DNA of 32,000 nucleotides from Aliivibrio fischeri (GTDB lineage: Bacteria; Pseudomonadota; Gammaproteobacteria; Enterobacterales; Vibrionaceae). Every line of letters starts with the position of its first letter. Position 1 is the first letter of the stretch. Positions 7,568 through 24,306 of the stretch are shown here, one piece after another. The notes beneath the pieces were generated by a model. The model made no database searches. It was given only the letters and a program-made list of their open reading frames with translations, and was not told where the DNA came from. Both the position numbers and the translations under genes were made by a program. The stretch spans positions 86,069-118,068 of the forward strand of contig NZ_WOBR01000003.1 in assembly GCF_009727955.1 (NCBI RefSeq), written 5' to 3'.

Positions 7568-7568
7568 G

Positions 7569-8345
7569 TTATTTCACCTCTTTTAGTGATAAAGATACAG
7601 GTAGAGTCAATAAGCTTGGGGCAACTTGTTTATAAGCGACTGAATAGGCTTTCGCTAAATCATCATTAAACTCAGAATCCAGAGCCTCCCATTGATTGGT
7701 GTACGTATTCCAACTCCAATATTGAGAAGCATCAAGACGACGAGCGAGTAAAGATACGCGTCCTAAATGCAGCATATCTGCATCTATTTGTTCATTATTT
7801 TCAACAATGATCTGTGTTTGGTATGTACCTAGCTTTGTGCCGTAATCCATTTCGATCTGGTAGGCTTCGAGGAGTCGACGATATTTTTCAGCATCACTTA
7901 CGTCCGCTCTAGTCATCATATGTTCAAGCTTGGCAATGCGATGTAAACGCTCTTCCGTTTTAATTGGCTGATCTTGTTCAACTACTGTCGATAAACCAGA
8001 TAACATCTTATACATTAAAGGAACAACACCTTGTCTGGTCTCTTTAATGGTCTCAATTTGGTCATTTAAACTTACCATCTCTTGCTGCTGACTATTCACT
8101 AAACCTGTTAAATGATCACGATATACTGCCAAGTTTTTTACTTCTTCTTGGAGCTGCTCAATTTCGGCTTTATAAGCTAACGTCGCTTCTGCACTTTTAT
8201 CGATTTTCTTCTGACTTATCGCTGAAGAAGTATTTGATTTATTTTCAATTACTCGTGCTTGATCAAGCGCAGTTGCCTGAGCGGTTGTGATCACGGTTGC
8301 TAATGCAATACCGATACTGATTTTTAGAATATTCATATTTATCAA
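7569..8345 (-). CDS. DUF3450-like periplasmic coiled-coil protein of TonB2 cluster
   Basis: Signal peptide, coiled coil, RVSLLARRLDASQYWSWN; adjacent to ttpC as in known Vibrio clusters. Confidence 0.75.
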   Translation of the reverse strand: MINMNILKISIGIALATVITTAQATALDQARVIENKSNTSSAISQKKIDKSAEATLAYKAEIEQLQEEVKNLAVYRDHLTGLVNSQQQEMVSLNDQIETIKETRQGVVPLMYKMLSGLSTVVEQDQPIKTEERLHRIAKLEHMMTRADVSDAEKYRRLLEAYQIEMDYGTKLGTYQTQIIVENNEQIDADMLHLGRVSLLARRLDASQYWSWNTYTNQWEALDSEFNDDLAKAYSVAYKQVAPSLLTLPVSLSLKEVK

Positions 8346-8407
8346 TTTCTTAACTGTTTATTTTTAAGAACGAGCTCTTAAAAATTTGTATTCAAATAAA
8401 CGCACTA

Positions 8408-8429
8408 AAGGGAGACCGAAGCCTCCCTT
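8408..8429. terminator. weak terminator-like hairpin between receptor and DUF3450-like gene
   Basis: AAGGGAG / CTCCCTT stem, 8-nt loop; no strong U tract in the minus-strand direction. Confidence 0.4.
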
Positions 8430-8446
8430 ATTTTTATTACAATAAA

Positions 8447-10549
8447 TTAGTATTTAACTTGCAGTGTCGCCATGTAGTTTCGGCCTTCACCAATAACAAC
8501 ATTCGATGCCCCATCGGTTGCGTAACCATTCTTACCAGTTGAACCACCACCTGCTAAGTAGTCAGTATCAAACAAGTTTTCAACATTAAAACGAGCGACA
8601 AAGGTTAAATCTTGGTCATATTTGATGGTATGAGATAACCCTAAATCGAAACGTGCATAGCCATCTTTTTTAAAGGTATTCGCTGCATCACCGTAACGCT
8701 CACCAACATAAATAGCGCCTAAGTTTGCATCGGTACTATTAGTAAATGCATAGCGAGTCCATACACTTGCAGTATATTCAGGCACATCCGCAGGACGGTT
8801 ACCTTCATACTTTTCATCTTTCGCATATTCAGCATCTAGATATGTCGCTGAACCGCTCATTGATAACTGCTCAGTAATAAAGCCTTGCATCGCTAACTCG
8901 ACACCACGGTGAACACGTTCACCTGATTGTGTTTTCTCTTTCTTACCACCACCTAAATCAACATCAATCGTTGAGTTTTCTTGGGTAATATCAAATACAG
9001 CACCAGATACAAACAGCTGGTTATCCATTAATTCCCATTTAGTACCTAGCTCATACAGCTTGCCACGTAAAGGGTCCAATTTTTGACCGTCATTCACGTA
9101 TTCACTGCCTGATACTTCACCTTGCATTTCAAAGCTTTCAGAATACGTTGCATAGATAGAACCAATGTCCATCGGATGATAAATTACAGCAAACTTAGGT
9201 GATACCGCTTCTTCTGCTAAACCTTCCTCAACTTGGCGATCTAAACGAACACCAACTAATGCTTGCCATTGATCATTAAACGTAATCATATCCTGAGCAT
9301 AAAAACCCCATGTATCGTACTTAGATGTTGTATCTCTAGGGTCTTTATTTGGATTACGCTCTGGAGCGGGAGCTGGCTCGCCAACTTGGCCGACAGAACT
9401 ATTAAATGAATACTCTAAACGGTCATAACGATAACCTAACCAGTTACTACCAAATAGCATTTGATGGCTTACGCCTAACGCATCAAATTCACCGATTAAA
9501 TCAATGCTTGCTGTTTTAAATACCCAGTTATCTTTACGATCACTACCGCCTTGAACGTATTCACCCGTTGCTGGATTATAAGTTTCTTCTTTAGGGAAGC
9601 TCTCTACGTCATGACGATTAAAATCTTGATGATTAAAGCTTGCGTTAATGCGCCATACATCAGTTAAATTTGCAGTAACATCAACACCAATGTTTTCTAC
9701 ATCATTTTCGATTTTTGACCACTGAGCATCCCAAATGTATTTATCATTAACAACCGTTTTGCCATCTTTAATGTAAGCACCAGAATCCACGCTACCTTCA
9801 TCAATTGTACGGTCATAATGGAATGACACAGTGATATCATCATTGATGTCATAATCTAAGAATAAACCACCTACAAAACGCTCTGTAGAAGGCACCGTTC
9901 CATCACTGTATTGACGCCATGAGTTGTAAGTTTGCTTTGATACAATGGCACGACCACGTAATGTTTGGTCATCATTCAATGCACCACTTACATCCGCAGT
10001 TGTTCGAGAATCATTATTTGAGCCTAGATCTTGACTCACACTCACTTGAGTTTCATAGGTCGGTTTTTTAGCAACCATATTAACCAAGCCACCCGGAGCT
10101 GACTGGCCATATAACAGACCTGAAGGACCTTTTAGTATCTCAACACGCTCTAATAATTCAATTGGTTGACGATAATGAGACCAATGTTGTTTTCCATCAC
10201 GTAAGAAACCAGAGCTACTGCTTAGTGAAAAGCCGCGCAATGTAAATTGCTCACGGTTACGTGTAGTTGCACCAGCACCGATACTTGCATCATTCTTTAG
10301 AACTTCACCAAGCGTACTGGCACGTTGTTCATCAATAAGTTGCTCATCAATAACACTCACTTGTCCTGGAGTTTCTAATTGAGTTGCCTCCATTCGCATG
10401 GAGCTTGAATTTGTATCTGCCTTGTAACCATAGTCACGACCAGTAACAACCATGTGCTCATCAGTTGTTGATGCATCTGTTTCAGCGTAAGCAAAAGGCG
10501 TTGATAAAACGGCGCTAATAACAAGAGCTAACTGACTTTTAGAAAACAT
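8447..10549 (-). CDS. TonB-dependent siderophore receptor
   Basis: Signal peptide, TonB-box-like EHMVVTG, plug domain (GFLRDG..., ERVEILKGPSGLLYGQSAPGGLVNMVAKKP), barrel ending in aromatic-rich NYMATLQVKY; substrate not determinable. Confidence 0.92.
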   Translation of the reverse strand: MFSKSQLALVISAVLSTPFAYAETDASTTDEHMVVTGRDYGYKADTNSSSMRMEATQLETPGQVSVIDEQLIDEQRASTLGEVLKNDASIGAGATTRNREQFTLRGFSLSSSSGFLRDGKQHWSHYRQPIELLERVEILKGPSGLLYGQSAPGGLVNMVAKKPTYETQVSVSQDLGSNNDSRTTADVSGALNDDQTLRGRAIVSKQTYNSWRQYSDGTVPSTERFVGGLFLDYDINDDITVSFHYDRTIDEGSVDSGAYIKDGKTVVNDKYIWDAQWSKIENDVENIGVDVTANLTDVWRINASFNHQDFNRHDVESFPKEETYNPATGEYVQGGSDRKDNWVFKTASIDLIGEFDALGVSHQMLFGSNWLGYRYDRLEYSFNSSVGQVGEPAPAPERNPNKDPRDTTSKYDTWGFYAQDMITFNDQWQALVGVRLDRQVEEGLAEEAVSPKFAVIYHPMDIGSIYATYSESFEMQGEVSGSEYVNDGQKLDPLRGKLYELGTKWELMDNQLFVSGAVFDITQENSTIDVDLGGGKKEKTQSGERVHRGVELAMQGFITEQLSMSGSATYLDAEYAKDEKYEGNRPADVPEYTASVWTRYAFTNSTDANLGAIYVGERYGDAANTFKKDGYARFDLGLSHTIKYDQDLTFVARFNVENLFDTDYLAGGGSTGKNGYATDGASNVVIGEGRNYMATLQVKY

Positions 10550-10631: not shown

Positions 10632-10915
10632 TGCATTAAATTTACATTCTTTGCATTCGTAAAGAAAGGTAAAGATGGCGTTACGCATAAAAAATATTTT
10701 TCAACAAAATCAAACTGAAGGTTCAACAATTAATGAACAGATTTTCATGAGTATGGCAACGAAATATAAAACAGCTTATTAATAGAACTCTCATTTTTGA
10801 GCATTAGATTACATTTTTTGAAATATTTTATTTTTTACTTATATACCGCTAACCCCAAAGTGGTAACATTGCGATTGACCACACATAGAATGTGGCTAAA
10901 TTAAGGATCATTATT

Positions 10916-12007
10916 ATGAACAAACGCTATATCGCTTTAATCGCTGCTATCGGTATTGCCATTGGTTGGTTAACCTTTGGTGGTACACAAGCAGTTCTTC
11001 ACGCCACTTCTAGTACTGAATTTTGTGTTTCATGCCACACGATGGAAAAACCACTGCATGAATATCAAGGCTCCGTTCATTTTAGTAACCAAAAAGGCAT
11101 TCGTGCTGAATGTGCAGACTGTCACATTCCTCAAGAACCAATTGATTACCTAATTACTAAAATCCGTGCCTCTAAAGACATCTATCATGAATTCGTTACG
11201 GGTAAAATTGATACGGATGAAAAATACGAAGAGCATCGTTTAGCTATGGCTGAAACGGTGTGGGAACAAATGCGTGAAAATGATTCAGCGACATGTCGTT
11301 CTTGTCATAGTTTTGATGCAATGGAAACCTATGACCAATCAGTAAGCGCACAGAAAATGCATGTTTATGGACAAGAAAACAACCAAACCTGTATTGACTG
11401 TCACAAAGGTGTTGCTCACTTTGCTCCTCAAGCTAAGTTAGATACGTCTGCATTTGATCATTTATTTGATATGGCGAAAAACACAAAGCTTGATGCTGAA
11501 AAGGTTTACCCTATTGAAAATATTAAGATGTCTGATCTTGCCATCATCAACCCAACGGTTGAACTTACAACAGTAAGCGCAAAAGATGAAACTCGTACAG
11601 TAACAGTTTCAGGCTTCCAAATGAAAGGAGCTGAATCAGTTATTTACATGGGTGAAGGCCAACGTTCAATCATCGCGACGCTAACAGAAAAAGGCATTAA
11701 AGCATTAACTCTAGGTGAAGCAACTACCGATGCTTACGGCAATGAATGGCGCAGCGCCGAGTTAACAGGCACAATCGATGCACCTGTTCTAGCTTCAAAC
11801 CAACCTTTATGGGATTACGCTGAAGAGCTTGATAATGTGTACTGTTCAACATGTCATGCCAAAATTCCAGCAAATCACTTCACAGTGAACTCTTGGGGTC
11901 CTGTGGCTAAAAGTATGGGTGCACGTACTGATATTTCAGCACTGAACCTTGAAATCCTAACTAAATTCTTCCAAAACCACGCTAAAGACGTGGCTAATCA
12001 TAAATAA
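10916..12007 (+). CDS. torY: pentaheme c-type cytochrome, TorC/TorY family
   Basis: Five CXXCH motifs (CVSCH, CADCH, CRSCH, CIDCH, CSTCH), N-terminal TM anchor; length 363 aa; directly upstream of the TMAO reductase. Start moved from the track's 10892 to the ATG at 10916. Confidence 0.85.
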   Translation: MNKRYIALIAAIGIAIGWLTFGGTQAVLHATSSTEFCVSCHTMEKPLHEYQGSVHFSNQKGIRAECADCHIPQEPIDYLITKIRASKDIYHEFVTGKIDTDEKYEEHRLAMAETVWEQMRENDSATCRSCHSFDAMETYDQSVSAQKMHVYGQENNQTCIDCHKGVAHFAPQAKLDTSAFDHLFDMAKNTKLDAEKVYPIENIKMSDLAIINPTVELTTVSAKDETRTVTVSGFQMKGAESVIYMGEGQRSIIATLTEKGIKALTLGEATTDAYGNEWRSAELTGTIDAPVLASNQPLWDYAEELDNVYCSTCHAKIPANHFTVNSWGPVAKSMGARTDISALNLEILTKFFQNHAKDVANHK

Positions 12008-12019
12008 GAGAGAGTGACT

Positions 12020-14473
12020 ATGACTAACATTTCTCGTCGCGGCTTTTTAAAAGGCGCAGGTGCATCAGCAGGTGCACTAGCGATTACGTCTATCGCTCCT
12101 TTATCTGTTAATGCCGCTACTGCTGGTCGCACAGATTCATTGGTTTTAACTGCTGGTCGTATGGGCCCATTACTTTGTGAGGTAAAGGATGGCGAGCTGC
12201 TATCAACTAAAAGTGGTTTAGCTCAAACCGTACCAAATAGCTTACAACAGACGGGGCCATCACAAGTTTATACAAAAGCTCGTGTAAAATACCCAATGGT
12301 TCGAAAAGGTTACTTAGAAAACCCAAGCGACCCTCAAGGCGTTCGTGGTAATGATGAATTTGTACGTGTTTCATGGGATGACGCATACAAACTAATTCAC
12401 GAACAGCATATGCGTATTCGTAAAGAAAACGGGCCTGAATCTATTTTTGCCGGCTCTTACGGTTGGCGTTCAAGTGGTGTTTTACATAAAGCACAAACGC
12501 TACTGCAACGTTACATGAGTATGTCTGGTGGTTATGCTGGTCACTTAGGCGATTACTCAACAGGTGCAGCTCAAGTTATCATGCCGCACGTTGTTGGCTC
12601 TATCGAAGTGTATGAACAACAAACTACTTATCCTGTTATTTTAGAAAACAGTGAAGTGGTTGTGTTATGGGGTCTAAACCCATTAAACACACTAAAAATT
12701 GCATGGTCTTCAACAGACGGGCAAGGCCTTGAGTTTTTCCATCAACTGAAAAAATCAGGAAAAACCATCATCATTATTGACCCAATGCGTTCAGAAACCG
12801 CTGAATTCTTTGGTGATAATGCACAATGGATTGCTCCTAACCCGCAATCAGATGTGGCAATGATGATGGGTATTGCTCATCAATTAGTCAAAACACAACA
12901 GCACGATACTGAATTCCTTGCTAAATACACAGTAGGCTTTGAACAATTTGAAGCATACCTAATGGGTAAAGAAGATGGTATTGAGAAATCACCACAATGG
13001 GCAGAAGCGATTTGTGGCGTACCAGCAAAACAGATGGAGCTGCTGGCTAAGATCTTCAAAGAAAACCGCACTATGCTTATGGCTGGTTGGGGTATGCAAC
13101 GTCAACAACATGGTGAACAACGCCACTGGATGTTAACCGTTCTTGCTTCTATGCTTGGTCAAGTCGGCCTACCGGGCGGTGGTTTTGGTTACTCATACCA
13201 CTACTCTAATGGCGGTAATCCAACACGTGATGCTGGTGTATTACCAGCAATGTCAGCGTCATTAGGCGGTGGCTCATCGGCAGGCAACGACTGGGCAGTT
13301 CAAGGTTCTGTAACCGCTTTCCCTGTTGCTCGTATTGTTGAATGTTTAGAAAAACCAGGGACACAATATCAACACAATGGTCATACATTAACCTTCCCTG
13401 AGTTAAAAATGATCTGGTGGGCAGGTGGCGCTAACTTTACTCACCACCAAGATACCAACCGTCTGATCAAAGCATGGCAAAAACCTGAACTGATCGTTAT
13501 TTCTGAACCGTACTGGACAGCAGCAGCTAAACACGCGGATATCGTTCTTCCAATCACTACCTCATTCGAGCGTAATGATATGACGATGACTGGTGATTAC
13601 TCTAACCAACATCTTGTTCCAATGAAGCAAGTTGTCGAGCCACAACATGAAGCACGTAATGACTTAGATGTTTTCGCAGATATGGCTGAACATTTAAAAC
13701 CAGGTGGTCGTAATGTGTATATGGAAAACAAAACGGAGATGGAATGGCTTCGTGATTTCTATAAAGCAGCACAACAAGGTGGGCGTAATGCACGTATTCC
13801 TATGATGAACTTTACTAAGTTCTGGGAAGCGAACCAACTTATCGAAATGAAATGGAATGCGAAGAACGCTGAGTTTGTTCGTTTTGGTGACTTCCGTAAA
13901 GATCCAATCATGAACCCACTAGGCACACCAAGTGGTAAAATTGAGATCTTCTCAAAAACCATCGAAGGCTTTAAGTTAGATGATTGCCCTCCACACCCAG
14001 TATGGATGGAGCCAACGGAGTGGATGTTTAACTACACAGATGGCGAACTTCAATTAATGACGTCGCACTCTGCACATCGCTTACATAGTCAATTTAACTA
14101 TGCTGATCTTCGTAAAGAGTATGCAATCCAAGATCGTGAGCCTATTACGATTCACCCAGAAGATGCAAAAGCTCGTGGTATTAAAGATGGTGATTTAGTT
14201 CGCGCTTACAACCAACGTGGTCAAGTTTTGGTTGGTGCACATGTTTCTGATGGTATTAAAAAAGGCAGTGTATGTATCCACGAAGGTGCATGGCCTGATT
14301 TAGACCCGAAAACAGGTATGTGTAAAAACGGTGGTCCAAACGTATTAACAATGGATATTCCAACGTCTCGTTTAGGTAATGGCAACTGCGGTAACTCAGG
14401 TGTAGTGAAAATTGAAAAATTCACAGGTGTTGCACCAACACTTACAGCGTTTACTCCACCAATGAATGGGTAA
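12020..14473 (+). CDS. torZ: periplasmic molybdopterin trimethylamine-N-oxide reductase (TorA/TorZ family)
   Basis: TAT signal [28 protein letters not shown]; molybdopterin oxidoreductase motifs ([55 protein letters not shown]). An alternative GTG start lies at 12014. Confidence 0.9.
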
Positions 14474-14520
14474 TCTTATATAATTCATAGGATGTGATAA
14501 GCATTCATTTCTTATAAAAA

Positions 14521-14546
14521 AAGCGCTCTATATTTAGAGCGCTTTA
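14521..14546. terminator. rho-independent terminator between convergent torZ-like and motB-like genes
   Basis: AAAGCGCTCT-ATATTT-AGAGCGCTTT perfect 10-bp stem with flanking A and T tracts. Confidence 0.85.
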
Positions 14547-14577: not shown

Positions 14578-15219
14578 TTAATTTCTTTTAATATAAATCA
14601 CAACACGTCGATTTAATTGACGCTGTTGTTCTATCGGTAACGCTTTGTCCGCTCGAGGTTGTGCATCCGCATACGCCACCGCTCTTAATTGTGATTTATC
14701 CACATTAAATTTGATCAATTGCTTAGTCACTTCTATAGCTCTTGCTCCAGAAAGCTCCCAGTTACTATCAAACTGTTTGGTATGAATAGGTAAATCATCA
14801 CTATGCCCTTCAACGATAATAGAGCGACCGTTCAAATCTACTTCTTTCATTGCTTCTGCGAATTCGGAAATAAGAGCTTTACCTTCAGGCTTTAAAGACG
14901 CAGAGCCTGAGTCGTACAAGTTTTCACTATCAAGATCAATTCGTATACCATCGGTGACAGCAGTCACTACCACAGAATCCAAATTCTTCTGCTCCACTAT
15001 CTCCTGAATATCGGCGGTTAACTCTTGCATAGGCAGATGAGCTGCAGTATCAACCACTTTTCCCCATCCATCTTTTAGCTCTTCTAACTTGCCTTCATTC
15101 ACTTGAGAGACGGCAACAATTAGAACAAAAAAAGCCAATAATAATGTGATAGCGTCACTGTATGTCATCATCCAATCATTGTCGTCTTTCAACTCAACTT
15201 TGGGTCTTGCTCTATTCAT
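14578..15219 (-). CDS. MotB/PomB-like stator protein with OmpA peptidoglycan-binding domain
   Basis: 213 aa; single TM with conserved Asp (DWMMTYSD22AITLLLAFFVLIVAVS); OmpA-like VEGHSDDLPIH...SNWELSGARAIEVTKQL...NRRVVIYI. Confidence 0.9.
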   Translation of the reverse strand: MNRARPKVELKDDNDWMMTYSDAITLLLAFFVLIVAVSQVNEGKLEELKDGWGKVVDTAAHLPMQELTADIQEIVEQKNLDSVVVTAVTDGIRIDLDSENLYDSGSASLKPEGKALISEFAEAMKEVDLNGRSIIVEGHSDDLPIHTKQFDSNWELSGARAIEVTKQLIKFNVDKSQLRAVAYADAQPRADKALPIEQQRQLNRRVVIYIKRN

Positions 15220-16002
15220 TTAAGACGCTAACCTTTTCTTAAACGGCAAATGTACATTCATTGAATCTTGTAAGTACAAATCAGGACGTTTTTCTGTCAT
15301 TAACACAAACGCATTAATTTGCATTTCACGATTATCAAAATTGGTATTTACTCGACGACTAATACGAATCGCTGCAGGTTTGAAAAACACCTGAGCCAAT
15401 AAAATCCCATAAAGTGTCGTTAATAAAGCAACAGCTAAACCATTACCTAGAGCAGCCATATCACCATTTAAATTATCAAGCATAATGATCAAACCAATCA
15501 ATGTACCTATCATTCCAAAGCCTGGTGCATAGGTACCCATTGAGTTTAAAACCTCGGCTTGAGTCATTTCTTGTTTATATTGGCTATGATTGCTTTCATC
15601 TAATAATTTTTTAAGCTCTTCACCTTTATAACCAGTACCGATAAGTTCGACACCTAAACGGATAAATGGATCATTTTTTTCATTATCATTCAATGAATTT
15701 TCTAAACCTGACATACCACTAGATCGAAAAATCTGATTCCACTCGACCGTTCTTTTTATTGATGCATGTTTAAACTTCGTCACGTTTTTCTCATCAAGCA
15801 AGTTAACAAGTAAACCTTTAAACGAAGACAAAATAAGTGGGTATGAATAACTGATTAACGCCGCAGTTAATGTTCCACCTAGTACAATAAGAAAACTCGA
15901 TAAACTCACAAATAACATGTATTTATCGGTACTCATTGTTACGGCACCAATTAACACACCAAACGCCATCAACAAGCCGGTAATAGTACTGAATGAGATC
16001 AT
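15220..16002 (-). CDS. MotA/PomA-like stator protein
   Basis: 260 aa; ITGLLMAFGVLIGAV, FLIVLGGTLTAALISY, and TM3 Pro motif TYAP160GFGMIGTLIGLIIML...NGLAVALLTTLYGILLAQVFFKPAA. Confidence 0.9.
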   Translation of the reverse strand: MISFSTITGLLMAFGVLIGAVTMSTDKYMLFVSLSSFLIVLGGTLTAALISYSYPLILSSFKGLLVNLLDEKNVTKFKHASIKRTVEWNQIFRSSGMSGLENSLNDNEKNDPFIRLGVELIGTGYKGEELKKLLDESNHSQYKQEMTQAEVLNSMGTYAPGFGMIGTLIGLIIMLDNLNGDMAALGNGLAVALLTTLYGILLAQVFFKPAAIRISRRVNTNFDNREMQINAFVLMTEKRPDLYLQDSMNVHLPFKKRLAS

Positions 16003-17735
16003 GCTACAGACTCCAATTCATTCATTGTAAATTGTTTATTTTCAATAGCTTGACGCATTAACATCACAACTTGTTGTTTTGCCGAGTTTTGCTCATCATA
16101 TGATGCATCTTTACAACGAGTCATTTCAGCTTTGATCATTTCAATCATACGTTCAGGGAACCCTGAAAGAATGACTGCGACTTGTTCATCGTCTAAATTA
16201 GTCAACGCTAATGCTAAAATTTCAGGATTCATACTGCGTAATATATTGCTTAAAATGACCGTTGACGTTCTAAGCACGTCATCAAAAATGTAGTACACCT
16301 TACGTAGATTTAAGTACGCTTCTGGTGAAGACACTTTTAGCTGATCTAACAAATCGTTTTGCTGACGTAAATTCATTCCATCAAGTAACGACATCAACAT
16401 TTGATTACCATCGGTTCTTACAGTTTCAAAATCAGGTACCGACTGAGCTTTAGCAGCAAGTGATGAGGCAATCTCACCAAATGTCGCCATTGGCATGGAA
16501 TCAAACTGAACTATCTCTATTGCTATTAATGCTTGCTCTTCAGCCGTAAACGTTGATAAGAACTTAGCTGAGCTTTCTGATGGTAATTGGCTTAAGACTA
16601 ATGCTTTAATGCGCAATGGCTCATCATCTAATACCCAACGAATTTGATTAATACTCAACTTATCTAAAAACGAAAATGGTCGACTGCGATGTTCAAATTG
16701 CTCAGAAGAAACCGCATCAACTAATAAATAATGTAAATCCGTTAGATCTCTCACCAAGCGGTCATAATCAGCAGGGTTCGTTTCTAAATACTTCAAATAC
16801 GCTGGAATATGTTCATTTAACGCAGGAAACATTGAAGTAAATAACGAACGTCCTAGTTCCTGATAACAAGAAGCGAACATAGGGATATTTTGTTCATTCA
16901 AACTTAAACGACGAAGTACCGCATCTACTTTTTGAGGTTCACTCAAACTGTACTTAACCAATTGTTGTCGACACGCTTTCAGTTCGCCTTTTTTCGTATC
17001 TAACAATTGCTCAGGCGTTGGAGGTAATGAACTCACTTCATTAACACCCACTTCTTTTGTAGGTACTTTACGATTACGTGCAAGTAAGTAACCAATAACT
17101 AATAGTAATAATAGAACCAACACCCACCAATATTGTGCGATAAATGATCCCGTTACTTCTGATACAGGAACCATATCCATCCGAATAATCTCAAGACGAT
17201 CCCCTCTCATTGGGTTGTATTCCAACTTCTCAAGTAACAGATTTCGAATAAGCAACTCTGTATCTTTATCCACACTATTATCTAATAATAATGTAGTTGA
17301 TAAAGAACGGATCATTTTCTCCGTTTTAGGTGCTTGTTCATTACCTAACACACCTTCTTGCTGCTCTACTTCCTCACTTGGCGTCGACACTTTTGCAGCA
17401 GTATTCTGATTAAAAGCAGACATACCCGCTAAGCCAGGAAGTTCTGGAGCATCATCAATAATAGCGGTTTTTACTTCTGGTTGTTGTTTAACAACTGTCG
17501 GTTTAGATGTTAAAGCATCAACCTCCTCACGAATAAACTCAGCTTGAATAGAAAGCACATGTATATTCTTACCCGCGATTCGTTCAATGTCGCTGTTAAG
17601 TCGTTGCTCTAACTCCGCAGTAAAAGACATTTGGTCCAACTGCAACGACGTTTGTGCGAATACAATTGAGGTAATAAATAAAAAGCTAATGCATACAAAA
17701 CGAATACACGATTTCATTCTTATTTTTCCAACCAT
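15999..17735 (-). CDS. FliF(RBM3 + C-terminal TM)-FliG(middle + C-terminal) fusion-like rotor protein
   Basis: 578 aa. Signal-like N-terminus; aa 36-190 resemble the FliF RBM3 domain (ELEQRLNSDIERIAGKNIHVLSIQAEF...RSLSTTLLLD...LEYNPMRGDRLEII); TM aa 203-219; aa 355-430 resemble the FliG middle domain (WVLDDEPLRIKALVLSQL); aa 440-570 resemble FliG C-terminal (IFDDVLRTSTVILSNILRSMNPEILALALTN...PERMIEMIKAEMTR...KQQVVMLMRQAIE). ATG at 17735 or 17717. Confidence 0.8.
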   Translation of the reverse strand: MVGKIRMKSCIRFVCISFLFITSIVFAQTSLQLDQMSFTAELEQRLNSDIERIAGKNIHVLSIQAEFIREEVDALTSKPTVVKQQPEVKTAIIDDAPELPGLAGMSAFNQNTAAKVSTPSEEVEQQEGVLGNEQAPKTEKMIRSLSTTLLLDNSVDKDTELLIRNLLLEKLEYNPMRGDRLEIIRMDMVPVSEVTGSFIAQYWWVLVLLLLLVIGYLLARNRKVPTKEVGVNEVSSLPPTPEQLLDTKKGELKACRQQLVKYSLSEPQKVDAVLRRLSLNEQNIPMFASCYQELGRSLFTSMFPALNEHIPAYLKYLETNPADYDRLVRDLTDLHYLLVDAVSSEQFEHRSRPFSFLDKLSINQIRWVLDDEPLRIKALVLSQLPSESSAKFLSTFTAEEQALIAIEIVQFDSMPMATFGEIASSLAAKAQSVPDFETVRTDGNQMLMSLLDGMNLRQQNDLLDQLKVSSPEAYLNLRKVYYIFDDVLRTSTVILSNILRSMNPEILALALTNLDDEQVAVILSGFPERMIEMIKAEMTRCKDASYDEQNSAKQQVVMLMRQAIENKQFTMNELESVA

Positions 17736-18262
17736 TTAATAATGTCAGAGACTTCTGTAAGTGATGGATCAAGTTCTAATGCTTTTTTCCATGACACTAT
17801 CGCCAATTCAACTTGATTCAACTTGTAGTGAACACTGCCTTTCATTGACAGAACTTTTGCAGGGTTTTCTGTTAGCACTTCGGCTTCATTTAATAAAGCA
17901 AGGGCTCCCACAAAATCACCATTAGCCGCTTTCTCTTTTGCTTCTACACGTAAAGCTAATGATTTAGGCTCATTAAATGCCGAAACTTGAGCTTCTTCTG
18001 AATCATTTAATTCAGGTAACAAAGCATCAATGTCTTCCTCAGGAATAAGATCAGTATCAATAGTCAAAATCAAATTTGGATCAGACAAGTCAATTTGAAA
18101 CGCCGAACGATATTGCTCTCCATTCAATCGGATAGATAATTGATTCTTTTCAAAAGGAATATTCTCTACTGTTTGCTGAGATGTAATATCATTAGCCAAT
18201 GCGATTGAAGTCATCATGCATTGAGTAGTAATGGCTGAAACAAATAAGATACGCTTTTTCAT
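17720..18262 (-). CDS. periplasmic tetratricopeptide-repeat protein
   Basis: 180 aa; signal peptide MKKRILFVSAITTQCMMTSIALAND; C-terminal TPR helices (AKEKAANGDFVGALALLNEAEVL, VLSMKGSVHYKLNQVELAIVSWKKALELDPS). Confidence 0.75.
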   Translation of the reverse strand: MKKRILFVSAITTQCMMTSIALANDITSQQTVENIPFEKNQLSIRLNGEQYRSAFQIDLSDPNLILTIDTDLIPEEDIDALLPELNDSEEAQVSAFNEPKSLALRVEAKEKAANGDFVGALALLNEAEVLTENPAKVLSMKGSVHYKLNQVELAIVSWKKALELDPSLTEVSDIIKWLEK

Positions 18263-18271
18263 AACAGCCCC

Positions 18272-19324
18272 TTAGAAACGAAAACCAATAGTAAAATCAA
18301 CAGCTGCACCGCCAAACTTGCCAGTCACAACATCACCTTGGTGCTTACTCTTGTAAGAGTTCTTTTCAATATAAGCAACACCGATATCAAAAAAACCATT
18401 CTTCATATAGGCAAATTCAACACCTGAACGCATAGCGAAACTGTTCTTGCCTTCAACGAATTGAGAACCAGCACTGATATATACACTAGGAGCTGGCCAA
18501 GAAGGAGTTAAGGTGTATAAAACACGCCCTTCAATACCACCACCTTCAACATTGAATAAGTTATTTCTATCAGAATTTTGGAAGTAATTTGCAATAACAG
18601 CAAAATGCAAACGTTCACTAGGTAAATGACGAGTGTAATAACGAAGACTAAAATCAGTTACATTATTAAAAGCATCATGGCTTTCTCCATTAACTTTAGC
18701 ATCACCACTTAAGTCAATATAACTCATCGCAAATCCAAATTGATGTGGGTTTAATTCCTTCTTAATTTCTTCTTCCTTTTTAGTCATTAAATAACCATCA
18801 GCCCAAATCGTTTCGTTATTTTCGACCTGAACTAAAGAAAGGGTAATATTTTGAGAAGAATCACTTAGACCCATTCGCCACATTAAAAATGCATCAGATT
18901 GAATTTCTTTACCTAATAAACGCAACTCTTTATTACTTTCAAGTCCACGTTGATATTTAATGGATGTTTTTGTTAAATGAAGTCGAGTCTTATTACACTC
19001 AAGACAATCACGAACCAATAAACCTGATTCTTGCATCTTCGTGGTTAATAACGCATTGATATCATCAACTTGACTTTGAGTTACGTTATTATCAATCTTT
19101 CCTTGAAAGTAGATAGTTACAGAATTAATGTTTTTCTTCTCTGCAATATCTTTAATTGCAAACCAAGATTCATCACGTTCCAAAAAATCATAAATAGAAG
19201 AAGTTGATAATGAAAGTTCTGATGATGTCTTTATATTAGAAGACGCCACGGCCATATTACAAAAAATAACACCGCACAAAGTAATTAACAATTTTCTAAA
19301 CAAAATTTTACCTAAAATATACAC
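18272..19324 (-). CDS. putative outer-membrane protein with CsgG/FlgO-like N-terminal domain and C-terminal beta-barrel
   Basis: 350 aa. N-terminal half ends in LLGKEIQSDAFLMWRMGLSDSSQNITLSLVQVENNETIWADGY; C-terminal half has alternating strands and ends GKFGGAAVDFTIGFRF (terminal aromatic). The upstream end codon is GTG; a TTG at 19303 preceded by AGGTAAAAT is an alternative start. Confidence 0.6.
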   Translation of the reverse strand: MYILGKILFRKLLITLCGVIFCNMAVASSNIKTSSELSLSTSSIYDFLERDESWFAIKDIAEKKNINSVTIYFQGKIDNNVTQSQVDDINALLTTKMQESGLLVRDCLECNKTRLHLTKTSIKYQRGLESNKELRLLGKEIQSDAFLMWRMGLSDSSQNITLSLVQVENNETIWADGYLMTKKEEEIKKELNPHQFGFAMSYIDLSGDAKVNGESHDAFNNVTDFSLRYYTRHLPSERLHFAVIANYFQNSDRNNLFNVEGGGIEGRVLYTLTPSWPAPSVYISAGSQFVEGKNSFAMRSGVEFAYMKNGFFDIGVAYIEKNSYKSKHQGDVVTGKFGGAAVDFTIGFRF

Positions 19325-19474: not shown

Positions 19475-19515
19475 AAAAAAAGGCCAATTCTGATTTTACA
19501 AAATTGACCTTTTTT
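19475..19515. terminator. terminator-like hairpin downstream of the sensor kinase gene
   Basis: AAAAAAAGGCCAATT ... AATTGACCTTTTTT, one mismatch in the GC part of the stem. Confidence 0.7.
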
Positions 19516-19538
19516 ATTAATGCTAGAGTCTGTATTTT

Positions 19539-20927
19539 TTAAACAGGAAACAACAACGATACTCTTAAACCGCCTTGTTTACGGTTTTCTGCAACAACTT
19601 GGCCTTTCATTACGGACATCGATTCTTTGACAATGGCTAAACCAAGTCCATACCCACCAGATTGCTTATCTCTGGCGGACTCTAGACGTGTGAATGGTGA
19701 GAATATATTTAAAAGCTGATCTTCTGGTATGCCCGGTCCATTATCTTCAACAATAATTGCAACGTGATTTTTCTCATTGCTCCGATATTCTGTGATAACA
19801 ACTTGAATAAGCGCATTATCGCCAGCGTACTTAATCGCATTTGTGATTAAGTTTTTAACCACTCGAGTTACTAAGCGAGGTTCAGCATGAACAACTGGAG
19901 CTTCTTTAGAGCAGATAAAATCCAAACATTGTGTCGGTCCTAAATCCATGCGGCTTTGAATCACTTGTGCGGAGATACAACTTTCAAGTAATACAAGTTC
20001 TAGCTTGGTGTTATAGCGAGAATTCTCTAATCGACTAAATTCTAAGATTTCTCCAACTAAATCATTCATCTCATTAGATTCATTTTCCAAACGGTTAACT
20101 AAGTGAATATAATCAGGATCAACCTTCTTTTTTAATAAATGAAGCGCAAGATTATGCCGAGCTAATGGGGTTCTTAACTCATGCGAAACATCACGAATAA
20201 GTCGCTGTTGCTTTTCTGCTAGCGAGTGAATTTCATGCGTCATGTTATCAAAATCATGAGCTAATTCACTGAACTCTCGAACCGAATTTCCAATTTCGTC
20301 ACTCACCTTTACGTCAAAATCACCTTGAGCAAGCTTATGACTAACCTCTCTCAACTTATCTAAAGGTCGCTGTAAATATCGTGCAATAACCCAAGAGAAT
20401 AACCCTAATATCAATACAGAAATAACTAGCTTAATAATCCCAAAATAAAGAGGAAAATTATTAGCAGGGTGATATTGATACGGCATTTGAATCACAATAG
20501 TTAATCCGTTTTCTAATGGAATACCAATAATGGGTTGATTAACTTCATTATCCAATTGCGTATTTAAAGGGCGTAAAAATTTCAGTTTAAACTCAAAATG
20601 AGGATGCATATCGCGGTGTGTAATTGGGCGGTTATTTTGGTCCAAAACAAATAAATAGTACTCTTGTGCACTCGCCCAATCCGCTAACTCATCCATATCC
20701 CCTTCTTCGATCAAGATATTTGCCTGCTCGGCCAAATCCAACATCTTAGTCTGAATAGAGCTAGGAATACGGAGCATAGATTTCATCAACGCAATTTCGG
20801 CCAAGCTCTGCAAAGAGATAATTAAAAATAAACTCACAGCAAAAGCACTAAATAGACGAAATGCTAGGCCATTTTTATATTTGCAAATAAAAGAGGGACA
20901 CGACTCAAACCATCGAAGCAACGTCAT
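19539..20927 (-). CDS. sensor histidine kinase (CpxA-like)
   Basis: Two TMs, HAMP, RDVSHELRTPLARH H-box, NLITNAIKYA N-box, DNGPGIP, GGYGLGLAIV. Confidence 0.88.
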   Translation of the reverse strand: MTLLRWFESCPSFICKYKNGLAFRLFSAFAVSLFLIISLQSLAEIALMKSMLRIPSSIQTKMLDLAEQANILIEEGDMDELADWASAQEYYLFVLDQNNRPITHRDMHPHFEFKLKFLRPLNTQLDNEVNQPIIGIPLENGLTIVIQMPYQYHPANNFPLYFGIIKLVISVLILGLFSWVIARYLQRPLDKLREVSHKLAQGDFDVKVSDEIGNSVREFSELAHDFDNMTHEIHSLAEKQQRLIRDVSHELRTPLARHNLALHLLKKKVDPDYIHLVNRLENESNEMNDLVGEILEFSRLENSRYNTKLELVLLESCISAQVIQSRMDLGPTQCLDFICSKEAPVVHAEPRLVTRVVKNLITNAIKYAGDNALIQVVITEYRSNEKNHVAIIVEDNGPGIPEDQLLNIFSPFTRLESARDKQSGGYGLGLAIVKESMSVMKGQVVAENRKQGGLRVSLLFPV

Positions 20928-20932
20928 TCCGC

Positions 20933-21598
20933 CTATCCATTAACCACTTTGATAAAGCTATAACCACGTCCGCGAACCGTTTTAATATGCTGTTTCGATA
21001 AGCCTGATTGCAATAGTTTGCGGCGAATATTGCTGATATGCATATCCAAATTACGATCAAATGGACATAACTCTTTTTTCAAAATATTGGTTTGTAAATC
21101 GGCTTTAGATACGACAACGTCCGTATTTTTAATTAAATATTGCAGTAACTCTGATTCCGTTTCAGTTAAAGGTAAACGTAAGAATTGTTCCGCTAAATCT
21201 TCTGTTGCACCTACATAGCTTTGACGCTGACGTTCAAGTCCTACACGACGTAAAATCGCAGTGATCCTTGCAAGCAACTCTGGCACATTAAAAGGTTTTG
21301 CAATGAAATGATCTGCACCCGCTTGTAATCCATCAAGCATAGACGCTTCATCGCCTAAAGCCGTAAGCATAAGGATAGGGGTAGCAAAACGCTGACATAT
21401 ACGGCGAGCCACTTGGTAACCATCTAGCTTTGGTAACATTACATCAAGCAAAACGAGATCTATGGAGTGCGTTTGAATAAATTCCAGAGCACTTTCGCCA
21501 CAATGTACGCAATCGACATCATAGCCTTCATCTTGTAATACTTCTTGCAACAAATTGCATAACTCAATGTCGTCATCAACAACTAAAATACGGGACAC
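20933..21598 (-). CDS. OmpR/PhoB-family response regulator (CpxR-like)
   Basis: Receiver (ILVVDDDIELC, DLVLLDVMLPKLDG) and winged-helix (VSKADLQTNILKK...RNIRRKL-type HISNIRRKLLQ...TVRGRGYSF); paired with kinase. Confidence 0.9.
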   Translation of the reverse strand: MSRILVVDDDIELCNLLQEVLQDEGYDVDCVHCGESALEFIQTHSIDLVLLDVMLPKLDGYQVARRICQRFATPILMLTALGDEASMLDGLQAGADHFIAKPFNVPELLARITAILRRVGLERQRQSYVGATEDLAEQFLRLPLTETESELLQYLIKNTDVVVSKADLQTNILKKELCPFDRNLDMHISNIRRKLLQSGLSKQHIKTVRGRGYSFIKVVNG

Positions 21599-22277: not shown

Positions 22278-22961
22278 ATGAAACTACTTATTATTGAAGA
22301 TGAAACTAAAACAGGAGAATACCTAAAAAAGGGGTTAACAGAATCAGGCTATACTGTTGACCTATCACAAGATGGTGCTGACGGTCTATATAATGCGACC
22401 ACCAATCAATACGACTTAATCATCTTAGATGTCATGTTACCTAAGCTAAATGGTTGGCAAATTCTACAAACACTACGAAATTGTGAAAATAATACGCCAA
22501 TCATTATGCTAACTGCCAAAGATCAAATTGACGATAGAGTAAAAGGGTTTGAGTTAGGAGCAAATGATTACCTTATTAAACCCTTTGCTTTTGCTGAACT
22601 AAAAGCCCGCATTGAAAATGCCCTTCGCGCAAAATCCGTAACATCACAAGCTTCATTATCAAATCAATTGGTCTTACTTGATTTACAACTGGATCTATTA
22701 AAACGAACCGCAACAAGAAACCAAGACAACATTACCCTTACAGCGAAAGAGTTTTCATTACTCGAACTGTTTATGCGTAAACAAGGGGAAGTATTATCAA
22801 GAACAACAATCGCTTCCCTGATTTGGGACATGAATTTTGATAGTGATACCAATGTCATTGATGTCGCGGTGAAACGACTTAGAGCTAAAATAGATAAGCC
22901 CTACGACACGCCACTAATTCATACTGTTCGCGGTATGGGCTATAAAATGGATGAATGCTAA
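22278..22961 (+). CDS. OmpR-family response regulator, CusR/CopR-like
   Basis: MKLLIIEDETKTGEYLKKGLTESGYTVDLSQDGADGLYNATTNQYDLIILDVMLPKLNGW; C-terminal wHTH ending VRGMGYKMD. Confidence 0.9.
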   Translation: MKLLIIEDETKTGEYLKKGLTESGYTVDLSQDGADGLYNATTNQYDLIILDVMLPKLNGWQILQTLRNCENNTPIIMLTAKDQIDDRVKGFELGANDYLIKPFAFAELKARIENALRAKSVTSQASLSNQLVLLDLQLDLLKRTATRNQDNITLTAKEFSLLELFMRKQGEVLSRTTIASLIWDMNFDSDTNVIDVAVKRLRAKIDKPYDTPLIHTVRGMGYKMDEC

Positions 22962-24306
22962 TTATATGAAAAAACATTACTTATCAATGAAACTAAAACT
23001 GACATTAATGTTTTTCTCTACCTCGGTATTTGTCTTTATTGGCTTAGGTTTCGCCATTCAATATCTCGTCCAATCTCATTTTTATGAAGAAGATCTTCGC
23101 TTAATTAACGCCAACCGTACTTCCATTTTTGTTTTATTAGAAAACGAAGGAATCACCAGCAGCGAAATTTTTGCTTCATTAAAAAGTCGTGGCATTAATA
23201 TTTGGATTGCCAATGATAATGGCACATTGACACAAAATACCAATGTGATCCCCAATGACAGTGCGTTTAAACAATCAAAGAAAATCAACGAATGGACTTA
23301 TGCAGGAAGTACATTTAGAACACTCTACTACCCACTAGAAAATGAGAATAATTATACTGGGCTGCTTATTGGAATTAATATTGATCACCACATTGAGTTC
23401 AATAAAAGACTAAAAGGCATTTTAATATGGTCCATTAGTATCGCGAGTCTCCTCTCTTTCATTTACAGCTTTATCATCGTAAATATGGGCTTTAAACCTC
23501 TGCAATATTTACAAGATCGCATCAAGCAAGTGCAACCAAATAAGTTAAGCATTCGGTTATCCGATGAACACTTACCTAATGAGTTAATTGAACTTGCTAA
23601 AATACAAAACCAAATGCTGGACAGGTTAGAGCTTGGATTTGAACGTCTCAGCGATTTTTCATCCGATATTGCTCATGAGTTAAAAACGCCGCTCTCAAAT
23701 ATGATGACTCAAACCCATGTCACCTTATCGCAACCAAGAACACCTTATGAATATCAAGAGATCTTATCTTCAAACTTAGAAGAATTAGAACGCATTAATA
23801 AAACCATTAACGATACCTTGTATCTTGCTAAATCTGAAAATGATTTATTATTAAAAGACAATATGCAATTAGATCTGAAACAGCTCTTCTCCCCTATTAT
23901 CGAGTATTACAGCATTGTCTCTGAAGAGACAGGAGTAACGATTCATCTATCGGGAAATGGCTCTCTTTGGGGCGATAAATCCATGATTCAACGCGTAGCA
24001 AATAACCTACTCTCTAACGCTATACGTCACTCTGCGCCCGATAGCGATATTCAAATTAAGATTGAAGAAAACCAAAATAACATCGTGCTATCTATCTCGA
24101 ATATGGGTGATGAAATTCCTGATAAAGATTTACCTTTTATTTTTGAACGCTTTTATCGAGCAGATAAATCCAGACAACATTCAAGTAGCACTGGAGCTGG
24201 CTTAGGACTAACCATTGTACGCTCAATTGTGAACCTACATAACGGTGATATTTCCGTTCAATCGGAAGGAAAGAAAACCACCTTTTTGCTTACCTTTCCT
24301 TTATAG
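22951..24306 (+). CDS. sensor histidine kinase, CusS-like
   Basis: Two TMs, SDIAHELKTPLSNMMTQ, NNLLSNAIRHS, GAGLGLTIVRSIV; overlaps the regulator gene. Start may be ATG 22966. Confidence 0.9.
   Translation: MNANYMKKHYLSMKLKLTLMFFSTSVFVFIGLGFAIQYLVQSHFYEEDLRLINANRTSIFVLLENEGITSSEIFASLKSRGINIWIANDNGTLTQNTNVIPNDSAFKQSKKINEWTYAGSTFRTLYYPLENENNYTGLLIGINIDHHIEFNKRLKGILIWSISIASLLSFIYSFIIVNMGFKPLQYLQDRIKQVQPNKLSIRLSDEHLPNELIELAKIQNQMLDRLELGFERLSDFSSDIAHELKTPLSNMMTQTHVTLSQPRTPYEYQEILSSNLEELERINKTINDTLYLAKSENDLLLKDNMQLDLKQLFSPIIEYYSIVSEETGVTIHLSGNGSLWGDKSMIQRVANNLLSNAIRHSAPDSDIQIKIEENQNNIVLSISNMGDEIPDKDLPFIFERFYRADKSRQHSSSTGAGLGLTIVRSIVNLHNGDISVQSEGKKTTFLLTFPL

Follow-up and report, generated by a model that had tools for sequence, protein, structure and literature searches.

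A natural FliF–FliG fusion encoded with flagellar-type stator proteins in a conserved five-gene operon of Aliivibrio fischeri

FliG and the flagellar-type stators are regarded as dedicated to the flagellum. The gene described here joins part of the MS-ring protein FliF to FliG in a single polypeptide and stands directly ahead of its own stator genes. It lies in a stretch of 32,000 nucleotides from Aliivibrio fischeri (contig NZ_WOBR01000003.1 of assembly GCF_009727955.1, positions 86,069 to 118,068), which we call the window and in which positions are counted from the first letter. The window derives from chromosome II, and strain ES114 has the same locus on its own chromosome II. Five genes, tightly packed on one strand and translationally coupled, make up the operon: gene 1, encoding a protein of 350 residues, a tetratricopeptide repeat (TPR) protein, the fusion, motA2 and motB2. 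On balance we favor, with a probability of roughly 60%, the reading that the fusion is a one-polypeptide MS-ring/C-ring rotor subunit of a self-contained, flagellum-derived rotor–stator module encoded by these five genes.

The fusion gene is the third of the operon (15999–17735, minus strand), and its assignment draws on the list of open reading frames (ORFs), Pfam, profile searches and an AlphaFold model. Its ORF of 578 residues is intact and is 95–100% conserved in many A. fischeri strains; the protein is 100% identical to an A. fischeri entry labelled "hypothetical protein" or "FliG C-terminal domain-containing protein". The peptides quoted in a preliminary description, made from the sequence without database searches, are all present on the minus strand within this ORF: FTAELEQRLNSDIERIAGKNIHVLSIQAEF occupies residues 39–68 and KMIRSLSTT...EIIRMDMVP residues 140–190, the transmembrane (TM) segment YWWVLVLLLLLVIGYLLARNRK spans residues 202–223, FLDKLSINQIRW... 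begins at residue 356, and the FliG-like stretch runs to residue 578. Forms of 572 and 573 residues are also annotated by NCBI and Met7 is nearly invariant in the family, so that the true start is probably Met7, at nucleotide 17717. Residues 1–27 (17655–17735) form a predicted Sec-type signal peptide with a basic n-region, a hydrophobic core and a putative cleavage site between VFA and QT, as judged from the sequence pattern; the hydrophobic segment at residues 9–27 is seen in most members of the fusion family.

Sequence identity between the fusion and the canonical proteins is about 10–27%, and because the single sequence misses the Pfam family YscJ_FliF_C, we used profiles and structure for the N-terminal half. 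A profile of residues 1–221, built from seven relatives and compared with the whole PDB, matched solely FliF (12dr_A at 5e-5, residues 233–477 of Salmonella 6scn_A at 2e-3, and two more), and against 1.84e9 proteins it recovered canonical FliFs at 1.9e-13 to 1e-7 over their region of about residues 230–450. Four FliF-sized matches that we checked (1.9e-13 to 5.5e-11) are bona fide FliF, with both YscJ_FliF and YscJ_FliF_C domains. Close relatives of the window protein reach PF08345 (YscJ_FliF_C) in four of seven cases (best 0.0067), and more distant members of the fusion family pass its gathering score at 24–40 bits together with FliG_M and FliG_C. Neither the window protein nor its close relatives gave a Pfam match to PF01514 (YscJ_FliF), the family that covers RBM1 and RBM2.

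We then considered an AlphaFold model of residues 28–222, computed from an alignment of 47 fusion-family N-termini from which canonical FliF was deliberately excluded. The model (mean predicted local distance difference test score, pLDDT, 84.5; predicted template modelling score, pTM, 0.62) consists of a helix, a long strand, a disordered loop of 65 residues, a second long strand, a helix, a strand and a TM helix. When it was compared with the PDB using Foldseek, the top 18 matches were all FliF MS-ring, S-ring or RBM3 structures (E 8e-6 to 4e-4, probability 1.00), followed by PrgK at 2.7e-2 and then by OsmC-like folds. TM-scores to the FliF structures were 0.34–0.54 with large root-mean-square deviations, because the real β-collar is replaced by a flexible loop, and the match is that of the RBM3 core. 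Taken together, the profiles and the predicted fold identify the N-terminal half as the FliF RBM3 region.

Within this region, the predicted helix and long strand of RBM3a (residues 29–72; 17520–17651, minus strand) correspond to helix 2–27 and strand 32–45 of the N-terminal model at pLDDT 94–98; they align to Salmonella FliF from residue 233 and have a non-synonymous divergence (dN) of 0.000 at a synonymous divergence (dS) of 0.30 relative to A. logei. The strand–helix–strand of RBM3b (residues 138–190; 17166–17324, minus strand) corresponds to model strand 110–125, helix 130–143 and strand 153–159 at pLDDT 96–98, and carries a near-invariant RGD (residues 177–179) that is common to FliF and is covered in the hidden Markov model alignments to 12dr_A, 6scn_A and 9yh6. 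Between the two, at the position of the FliF β-collar loop, lies a variable insert (residues 73–137; 17325–17519, minus strand) with pLDDT 53–69. The full β-collar is missing: the 65-residue insert is modelled as a disordered loop between two elongated strands. Conservation within it is limited to an LPGL motif, contained in a P-x-LPGL sequence at residues 97–102, which is invariant in seven close relatives and in which L99, P100 and G101 show 90% conservation or more across alignments of 40 and 47 members. A TM helix at residues ~199–221 (17073–17141, minus strand) is the equivalent of FliF TM2, as indicated by a hydropathy peak at residues 197–215, by the predicted helix and by its alignment to TM2. 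These results bear out the preliminary description, which had read residues ~40–70 and ~140–190 as two halves of RBM3 separated by a low-complexity insert and followed by a TM segment. They also agree with its claim that RBM1, RBM2 and TM1 are absent and that a signal-peptide-like N-terminus stands in their place, given that the FliF alignments start at about residue 230; a predicted signal peptide thus replaces these three elements of FliF.

The assignment of the C-terminal half is more direct. FliG_M (PF14841) matches residues 364–434 at 1.9e-18 (66.9 bits, gathering score 25) within a middle domain that spans residues 352–434 (16434–16682, minus strand) in the alignment to 1lkv, and FliG_C (PF01706), the torque domain, matches residues 465–569 (16029–16343, minus strand) at 2.3e-17 (63.6 bits, gathering score 23.3). 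In a phmmer search of the PDB, residues 352–565 match the crystal structure of the Thermotoga maritima FliG middle and C-terminal domains (1lkv) at 9e-10, and the 40-member family profile takes this match to 1e-40. FliG structures were also ranked first by Foldseek for the full-length AlphaFold model (pLDDT 68), and the isolated FliG_C domain superposed at TM-scores of 0.84–0.88, including on 8ucs_H, the FliG chain of a MotAB–FliG complex. A generic MgtE_N/ARM domain was considered for this half and rejected, as MgtE_N reaches 18.7 bits, under its cut-off, compared with 64–67 bits for the FliG domains. The preliminary description had named two outcomes that would refute it, a predicted fold of residues 36–190 unlike RBM3 and a C-terminal region with matches to generic MgtE-N/ARM folds but not to FliG; neither occurred. 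The score against the NCBIfam fliG equivalog TIGR00207 is 58.6 bits, far under the cut-off of 226.7, and the protein is therefore a FliG homologue and not a flagellar orthologue.

The junction between the two halves is informative. Canonical FliFs align collinearly with the 40-member profile from about residue 230 through to the end of the protein: the match to Salmonella FliF extends to residue 558, and QQLVKYSLSEPQKVDAVLRRLSLNE of the window protein aligns with the extreme C-termini of canonical FliFs, ...ENPQKAAELIRTWL and ...EKPEQVAEIVKSWLTED. This segment (residues ~240–281; 16893–17018, minus strand) is the equivalent of the cytoplasmic C-terminal helices by which FliF binds FliG. Three profile positions past the end of FliF, canonical FliG aligns from its residue 7–8 (NIPMFASCYQELGRSLFTSMF... 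against GRQKAAVLLISLGPDVAAKVY...) and continues through FliG_M and FliG_C. A diverged FliG N-terminal domain is probable at residues ~284–340 (16716–16886, minus strand), on the basis of profile nodes 313–369, collinearity and Foldseek columns. Its sequence signal is weak: the nodes align to canonical FliG residues 8–65 with a domain E-value of 2.5e-5 in an 11-sequence search and of 0.76 as a separate PDB domain. The same region also aligns to residues 10–71 of Aquifex aeolicus FliG with the 40-member profile, and 307–325 columns of the full-length model were aligned to full-length FliG structures. The collinear junction therefore defines the protein as FliF (RBM3 to C-terminus) joined to FliG (a probable N domain, then M and C). 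The preliminary description had assigned the last ~350 residues to FliG and called the protein a natural FliF–FliG fusion; both statements hold, and the fusion is fuller than was claimed, since it also includes the FliG-binding helix of FliF and a probable FliG_N.

The stator genes follow immediately. The start of motA2 (gene 4, VF_A0186 in ES114; 15220–16002, minus strand) overlaps the stop of the fusion gene by 4 nucleotides, and motB2 (gene 5, VF_A0187; 14578–15219, minus strand) starts at the nucleotide next after motA2. MotA2 matches Pfam MotA_ExbB at 2.6e-23, and its best NCBIfam matches are MotC, PomA, MotP and MotA (1e-42 to 1e-20), as against ~3e-3 for TolQ/ExbB. MotB2, with a plug, a channel aspartate (Asp22) and an OmpA-like peptidoglycan-binding domain, matches MotB_plug at 9.6e-14 and OmpA at 6.7e-18; MotD is its best NCBIfam match at 1e-45, and MotS is also matched. 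All NCBIfam matches of the two proteins fall under the equivalog cut-offs. By these comparisons MotA2B2 is a stator of the flagellar and not of the ExbB/TolQ type. The genes were named in 2013 by Brennan et al., who noted that the pair was at that time unique among complete Vibrio genomes; the neighboring FliG-like gene was not discussed there (PMC3948606). Judged from the numbers of its neighbors, the fusion gene would be VF_A0185 and the operon VF_A0183–0187.

The two upstream genes encode predicted envelope proteins. Gene 2 (17720–18262, minus strand) encodes an exported protein of 180 residues with Pfam TPR_11, TPR_1 and TPR_2 matches at residues 135–168, and it is probably a lipoprotein, as most of 11 orthologues have a lipobox cysteine aligned to a cysteine of the window protein. 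Gene 1 (18272–19324, minus strand) encodes a putatively secreted protein with a signal peptide, a periplasmic N-domain and a C-terminal half that ends in ...GFRF, an ending characteristic of outer-membrane β-barrels, as defined from the ORF and an alignment of 12 orthologues. FlgO was matched in Pfam by six of the 12 (best E 1.2e-3), CsgG by one and OMP_b-brl by one, with a single match to LpoB; a gene 1 profile had no match among PDB sequences. We tentatively regard the product as a putative outer-membrane β-barrel with a FlgO/CsgG/LpoB-like N-domain. Cys107, Cys110 and the terminal phenylalanine are invariant in the 12 orthologues, whose C-termini read ...GxRF. The invariant CxxC (CIECxKT, residues 107–110) lies in the periplasmic domain and may form a structural disulfide or take part in redox chemistry or metal binding; FlgO has no counterpart of it.

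The working residues are well conserved in the stator and partly so in the fusion. In MotA2, R93 (equivalent to Escherichia coli R90) is R or K in 23 of 25 cassette orthologues and E101 (equivalent to E98, eight residues on) is E in 24 of 25, while P160 and P209 are invariant (25/25), as is D22 of MotB2 (23/23). In the fusion, Arg529 (equivalent to E. coli R281) is R or K in 30 of 40 members, Glu537 (D289) is E or D in 25 of 40, and the position of A536 (D288) is D or E in 15 of 40. The core pair of the torque helix thus persists, and the outlying charges do not. The FliM-binding EHPQR motif is altered in the middle domain, where DEPL takes the place of EHPQ; FliM and FliN genes were not found at any of the 34 loci examined, and the FliM of the host cell may be a binding partner of the fusion. 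Export gate, rod, hook and filament, like FliM and FliN, are not encoded with the cassette. The fusion is under purifying selection, with dN/dS ratios of 0.09–0.19 (0.10 relative to A. logei and 0.09 relative to A. finisterrensis); the RBM3 core is its most constrained part (dN 0.000–0.016 at dS 0.30–0.66), and the collar-loop insert is the most relaxed (dN/dS ~0.3).

The family extends well beyond Aliivibrio. An exhaustive search of 1.84 billion representative proteins with the profile of residues 1–221 gave 693 matches at E ≤ 1e-3, of which 150 were listed and four were already known; among the 146 new 50%-identity clusters listed, at least 78 have the fusion architecture and another 37 are FliF-sized. 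When word-indexed proteins were searched with the 40-member profile, the 21 matches were all already known; the breadth came from the exhaustive search. Eighteen genome loci were located from a 12-member alignment by means of a single peptide pattern, and for this reason they under-sample the family. When the fetched loci were searched with the five window proteins, the gene order was the same in all 22 of the gammaproteobacterial loci in which the complete set of five is present (Aliivibrio, Vibrio nigripulchritudo, V. agarivorans, Vibrio sp. SCSIO 43136, a Shewanellaceae metagenome-assembled genome, Bermanella, Oceaniserpentilla and metagenomes), with unrelated flanks. Gene 1 is always first and the TPR protein always second in the cassette.

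Association with a stator persists at low identity, as relatives with the fusion architecture usually adjoin MotAB. A protein 29% identical to that of the window (P0036; relatives and loci carry our own P and L numbers) belongs to the same cassette, and relatives at 17–20% identity (P0071 and P0058) still adjoin MotA and MotB. For P0071 the order is fusion–MotA–MotB–MotB–TPR (L029, 7311–11223), and three multihaem c7-type cytochrome genes lie upstream. For P0058 it is MotA–MotB–fusion (L030, 6894–10142), followed by two small proteins without known identity and two single-domain CheY-like receivers; this arrangement hints that versions of the module of this type are under phosphorelay control, though without FliM or FliN.

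Several further observations on the family were made along the way. At the loci of P0020 (L001 and L002), the order in L002 is fusion, a 454-residue TPR-containing protein and a gene 1 homologue; at that of P0026 (L009), the cassette is followed by a TraF_2/PorP-like barrel of 470 residues and two large uncharacterised proteins. Six relatives (P0074, P0092, P0100, P0117, P0131 and P0141; L031/L032) form a subfamily in which a further TPR domain, C-terminal and cytoplasmic, follows FliG_C, and P0092 has as neighbors a 544-residue TPR protein, a 1190-residue uncharacterised protein and a GGDEF protein. P0054 (295 residues, 120 bits to YscJ_FliF_C), P0075 (303 residues) and about 28 other short matches have RBM3/YscJ_FliF_C and a TM segment with no FliG; these could be fragments of genes, or else independent "half-FliF" proteins that pair with a separate FliG. 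In Vibrio agarivorans (L004, 240–11127) the cassette comes directly after cheR, a cheV-like gene, flgA, flgM, flgN, flgO and flgT, making this the only sampled genome in which it adjoins a flagellar gene cluster. A metagenome-assembled genome labelled Crocinitomicaceae (Bacteroidota; L026) holds a cassette whose layout and scores nearly match those of the Bermanella cassettes, possibly a binning error rather than a cross-phylum transfer.

A recent origin of the fusion from the fliF and fliG of its host was also considered and rejected: a rough neighbor-joining tree built on the RBM3 core places 34 of the 36 canonical FliFs in a pure clade without fusions. This tree is crude and carries no evidence on rooting. 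Full-text searches of the literature outside subscription journals yielded no description of the family or cassette, and the family is a widespread FliF::FliG–MotAB cassette, free of a type III secretion system (T3SS) and so far undescribed.

The mechanism that we propose for the favored rotor–stator module is as follows. Exported RBM3 domains would oligomerise into an S-ring-like ring at the periplasmic face of the inner membrane, which would hold an equal number of FliG units as a ring on the cytoplasmic face, in a 1:1 ratio. A stator of five MotA2 and two MotB2 subunits, anchored to peptidoglycan through MotB2, would pass ions by way of Asp22 and press on the torque helix of FliG_C by means of charge pairs between R93 and E101 of MotA2 and E537 and R529 of the fusion. 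Movement would then pass through the TM helices to the periplasmic ring, where the LPGL loops might engage the TPR lipoprotein, the outer-membrane protein or both. Because there is no export gate, rod, hook, filament, FliM or FliN, the output would not be flagellar swimming but an envelope or surface process; outer-membrane or vesicle dynamics, surface movement and mechanosensing are speculative candidates. More tentatively, and with less confidence than in the rotor-subunit reading itself, one may postulate that the cassette is an autonomous rotary nanomachine, widespread in bacteria and lacking both filament and type III export, in which private flagellar-type stators spin a single-polypeptide MS/C-ring and so drive the TPR lipoprotein and the outer-membrane barrel. 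Such a machine would have one of two origins: drastic reduction of a flagellum and its recruitment to a new task in the envelope or at the surface, or survival as an analogue of the rotor–stator core as it was before its union with the export apparatus.

The rotor-subunit reading must be weighed against several observations that speak against it. The window protein alone has no YscJ_FliF_C (PF08345) match at E ≤ 1 in the Pfam scan, so that its own homology to this domain is drawn from profiles and a predicted fold, and ring formation, for which the predictions are of monomers, is suggested by homology to RBM3. In flagella the β-collar grips the rod; here it is reduced to a disordered loop, and the operon encodes no axle-like product. 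The equivalents of K264 and R297 in the fusion are Thr and Ser, a loss of two of the five classical torque-helix charges, and the FlgO-like and β-barrel assignments of gene 1 are weak. P0020 and P0026 keep their gene 1 and TPR partners with no adjacent MotAB, and the MotAB nearest to P0092 (FlbD–MotA–MotB, on the opposite strand) is 6 kb away. The reduced collar, the missing axle and the absence of FliM and FliN would suit a non-rotary force transducer of the TonB or TolA kind, in which a monomer or small oligomer is pulled or cranked by MotA2B2 at FliG_C, with no complete ring turning, and the TPR lipoprotein and barrel receive the force by way of the single TM helix and the periplasmic domain, for example for channel gating, outer-membrane remodelling or surface sensing. 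The cassette indeed spans the envelope, from stator through inner-membrane adaptor and periplasmic TPR protein to outer-membrane protein, in the layout of ExbBD, TonB and receptor exemplified in the same window at 3504–10549. We nevertheless consider this scheme unlikely, if the most serious of the competitors, as the periplasmic domain is specifically the ring-building RBM3 domain of FliF and is the most constrained part of the fusion, the RBM3 structures that it matches are rings of 33 to 35 subunits according to their PDB titles, and the stator, which has the R/E pair that faces the rotor, belongs with flagellar and not with ExbB/TolQ stators. To our knowledge, every FliG_C–MotA contact occurs within a ring. 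An engineered Vibrio FliF–FliG fusion (PMC10941966; PDB 8z4d) speaks to both sides: it forms MS-rings in E. coli, in favor of the ring competence of such fusions, but its FliG region is floppy without FliM and FliN, which counts against a working rotor.

A role in the flagellum itself is less probable still. All recognisable parts of the cassette are homologues of flagellar proteins, and the fusion and its stator could conceivably serve the polar flagellum as a conditional accessory, either as an alternative rotor and stator or as an extra ring around the MS-ring, for instance on surfaces, at high load or within the host. The neighbors of the cassette in V. agarivorans (flgT, flgO, flgN, flgM and flgA), the FlbD–MotA–MotB genes near P0092, and a 2023 transcriptome in which motA2 and motB2 are ~2-fold down alongside some flagellar genes in an RscS-overexpression biofilm model are in keeping with such a role. 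FliF RBM1 and RBM2 house the export gate, and the fusion cannot nucleate a flagellum because it has neither; in most genomes, moreover, the surroundings of the cassette are unrelated and non-flagellar. In ES114, strains with insertions in motA2 or motB2 swim normally in soft agar and are fully motile, the two genes are not activated by FlrA and lie outside its regulon, and A. fischeri has a separate, complete fliF and fliG (VF_1852 and VF_1851; PMC3948606). It is scarcely credible that the gene is instead the decaying, functionless remnant of a frameshifted fliF and fliG, or an artefact of annotation or assembly: annotations are generic and no phenotype is reported, but the ORF is intact, functional residues are kept and the architecture recurs. 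We rejected a pseudogene or assembly artefact on the grounds of strain conservation, five-gene order across genera, cluster count (at least 78 at 50% identity) and dN/dS (0.09–0.19).

The surroundings of the operon in the window can be described briefly. Between motB2 and a convergent, putatively torA-like gene lies a bidirectional terminator-like hairpin (14520–14545) with an 11-bp stem and T-runs on both strands, which probably marks the end of the operon. At the other end, the 214-nucleotide gap upstream of gene 1 has a weak sigma-70-like promoter candidate (19493–19520, minus strand) that fits 9 of 12 positions, in a region where the count of such sites is not above chance. The genes that converge on motB2 from 10892–14473 on the plus strand, sharing the hairpin terminator, encode a NapC/NirT-type tetrahaem cytochrome and then an 819-residue reductase-like ORF, torA-like by sequence, with a twin-arginine-type N-terminus. 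Just upstream of the cassette, two OmpR-type two-component systems (19539–21598, minus strand, and 22278–24306, plus strand) flank a DUF3316 gene, with HK_sensor as the sensor domain of one kinase and a CusS-like sensor in the other; that the adjacent system is part of the module was considered and rejected, because neither system is found beside the cassette in other genomes. A complete TonB2-type cluster occupies 3504–10549 on the minus strand, with a TonB-dependent receptor (8447–10549), DUF3450, a 451-residue ExbB-like protein, ExbB, ExbD, TonB and a 393-residue TPR protein. The window thus contains, within 10 kb, ion-driven 5:2 motors of two different families, both accompanied by a TPR protein. 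Further along, two methyl-accepting chemotaxis proteins of 541 residues with an identical layout (4HB_MCP and MCPsignal) are encoded in tandem at 27308–28933 and 29396–31021 on the minus strand, and are probably a recent duplication.

Here a complete rotor–stator pair stands apart from export gate, rod, hook, filament and switch and is packaged with envelope proteins, in many lineages. For A. fischeri, the cassette accounts for the long-standing puzzle of the "extra" motA2B2 genes. Should the cassette prove to be a working motor, no simpler natural FliG/MotAB machine would be known: it would need two to three proteins for torque, at a fixed 1:1 ratio of FliF to FliG, and would on that account be well suited, as a minimal system, to structural and single-molecule studies of how torque arises; it would also point to an unrecognised ion-driven envelope process in a well-studied and genetically tractable symbiont. 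It would have a bearing on the evolution of the flagellar motor as well, because the RBM3–FliG–MotAB core could then exist as an independent unit, and if rotation were demonstrated the module might represent a distinct class of envelope motor.

Comparison with known systems places the fusion close to, and yet outside, the flagellum. With canonical FliF (Salmonella 6scn and 7bk0) and FliG (T. maritima 1lkv, A. aeolicus 3hjl) it has in common the fold of RBM3 with its RGD and PG-containing motifs, TM2, the FliG-binding helix, the M and C domains of FliG with a probable N domain, part of the torque-helix charges (an Arg and an acidic residue) and the pairing with MotAB; it differs in being one polypeptide instead of two, in having a signal peptide in place of TM1, RBM1 and RBM2, and in having a disordered loop in place of the β-collar. 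FliF–FliG fusions made in the laboratory or arising spontaneously in Salmonella and Vibrio alginolyticus (PMC10941966, PMC11481574; 8z4d and 8z4g) are likewise end-to-end and 1:1, and those of Salmonella support flagellar assembly and rotation (Bergeron, bioRxiv 10.1101/023564; PMC4768692). These retain a full-length FliF and a complete flagellum, whereas the fusion described here is natural, truncated at its N-terminus, ancient and outside flagellar gene sets. A natural parallel is the FliF–FliG protein of Chlamydiaceae (PMC4768692), which also has a reduced periplasmic region and a non-flagellar setting. The chlamydial fusion (~330 residues) comprises TM1, an RBM2-like domain, a second RBM, TM2 and a FliG_M-like piece alone, and is thought to work with a T3SS; in the present family RBM3 is the only RBM, FliG is probably complete and has its torque domain, and the link is to MotAB and not to a T3SS.

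For the stator, the hallmark residues, plug and OmpA-like domain of MotAB, PomAB and MotCD are all present in MotA2 and MotB2, which have MotC and MotD as their best family matches; unlike flagellar stators, the pair is dispensable for swimming, lies outside the flagellar regulon and is encoded with a private FliG. A 2025 stator phylogeny describes the whole MotAB/PomAB ("FIT") clade as associated with flagella (PMC12505986). In complex flagellar motors, the periplasmic TPR proteins MotC and MotK and FlgO-type proteins serve as scaffolds of the stator or the outer membrane (PMC13023049); the cassette stator, by analogy alone, has a TPR protein and a weakly FlgO-like protein in its company. The homology to the Vibrio H-ring proteins FlgO, FlgP and FlgT is weak, however (best E 1.2e-3), and the FlgO-like domain of the cassette is fused to a putative β-barrel and contains an invariant CxxC. 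Finally, ExbBD–TonB and TolQRA, 5:2 motors outside the flagellum whose target is the outer membrane, resemble the cassette in combining the genes of an ion-driven motor of the inner membrane with those of partners that span the periplasm or lie in the outer membrane. Their motor subunits are of the ExbB/TolQ type and their adaptors are helical or TonB-type; none has FliG or an RBM ring.

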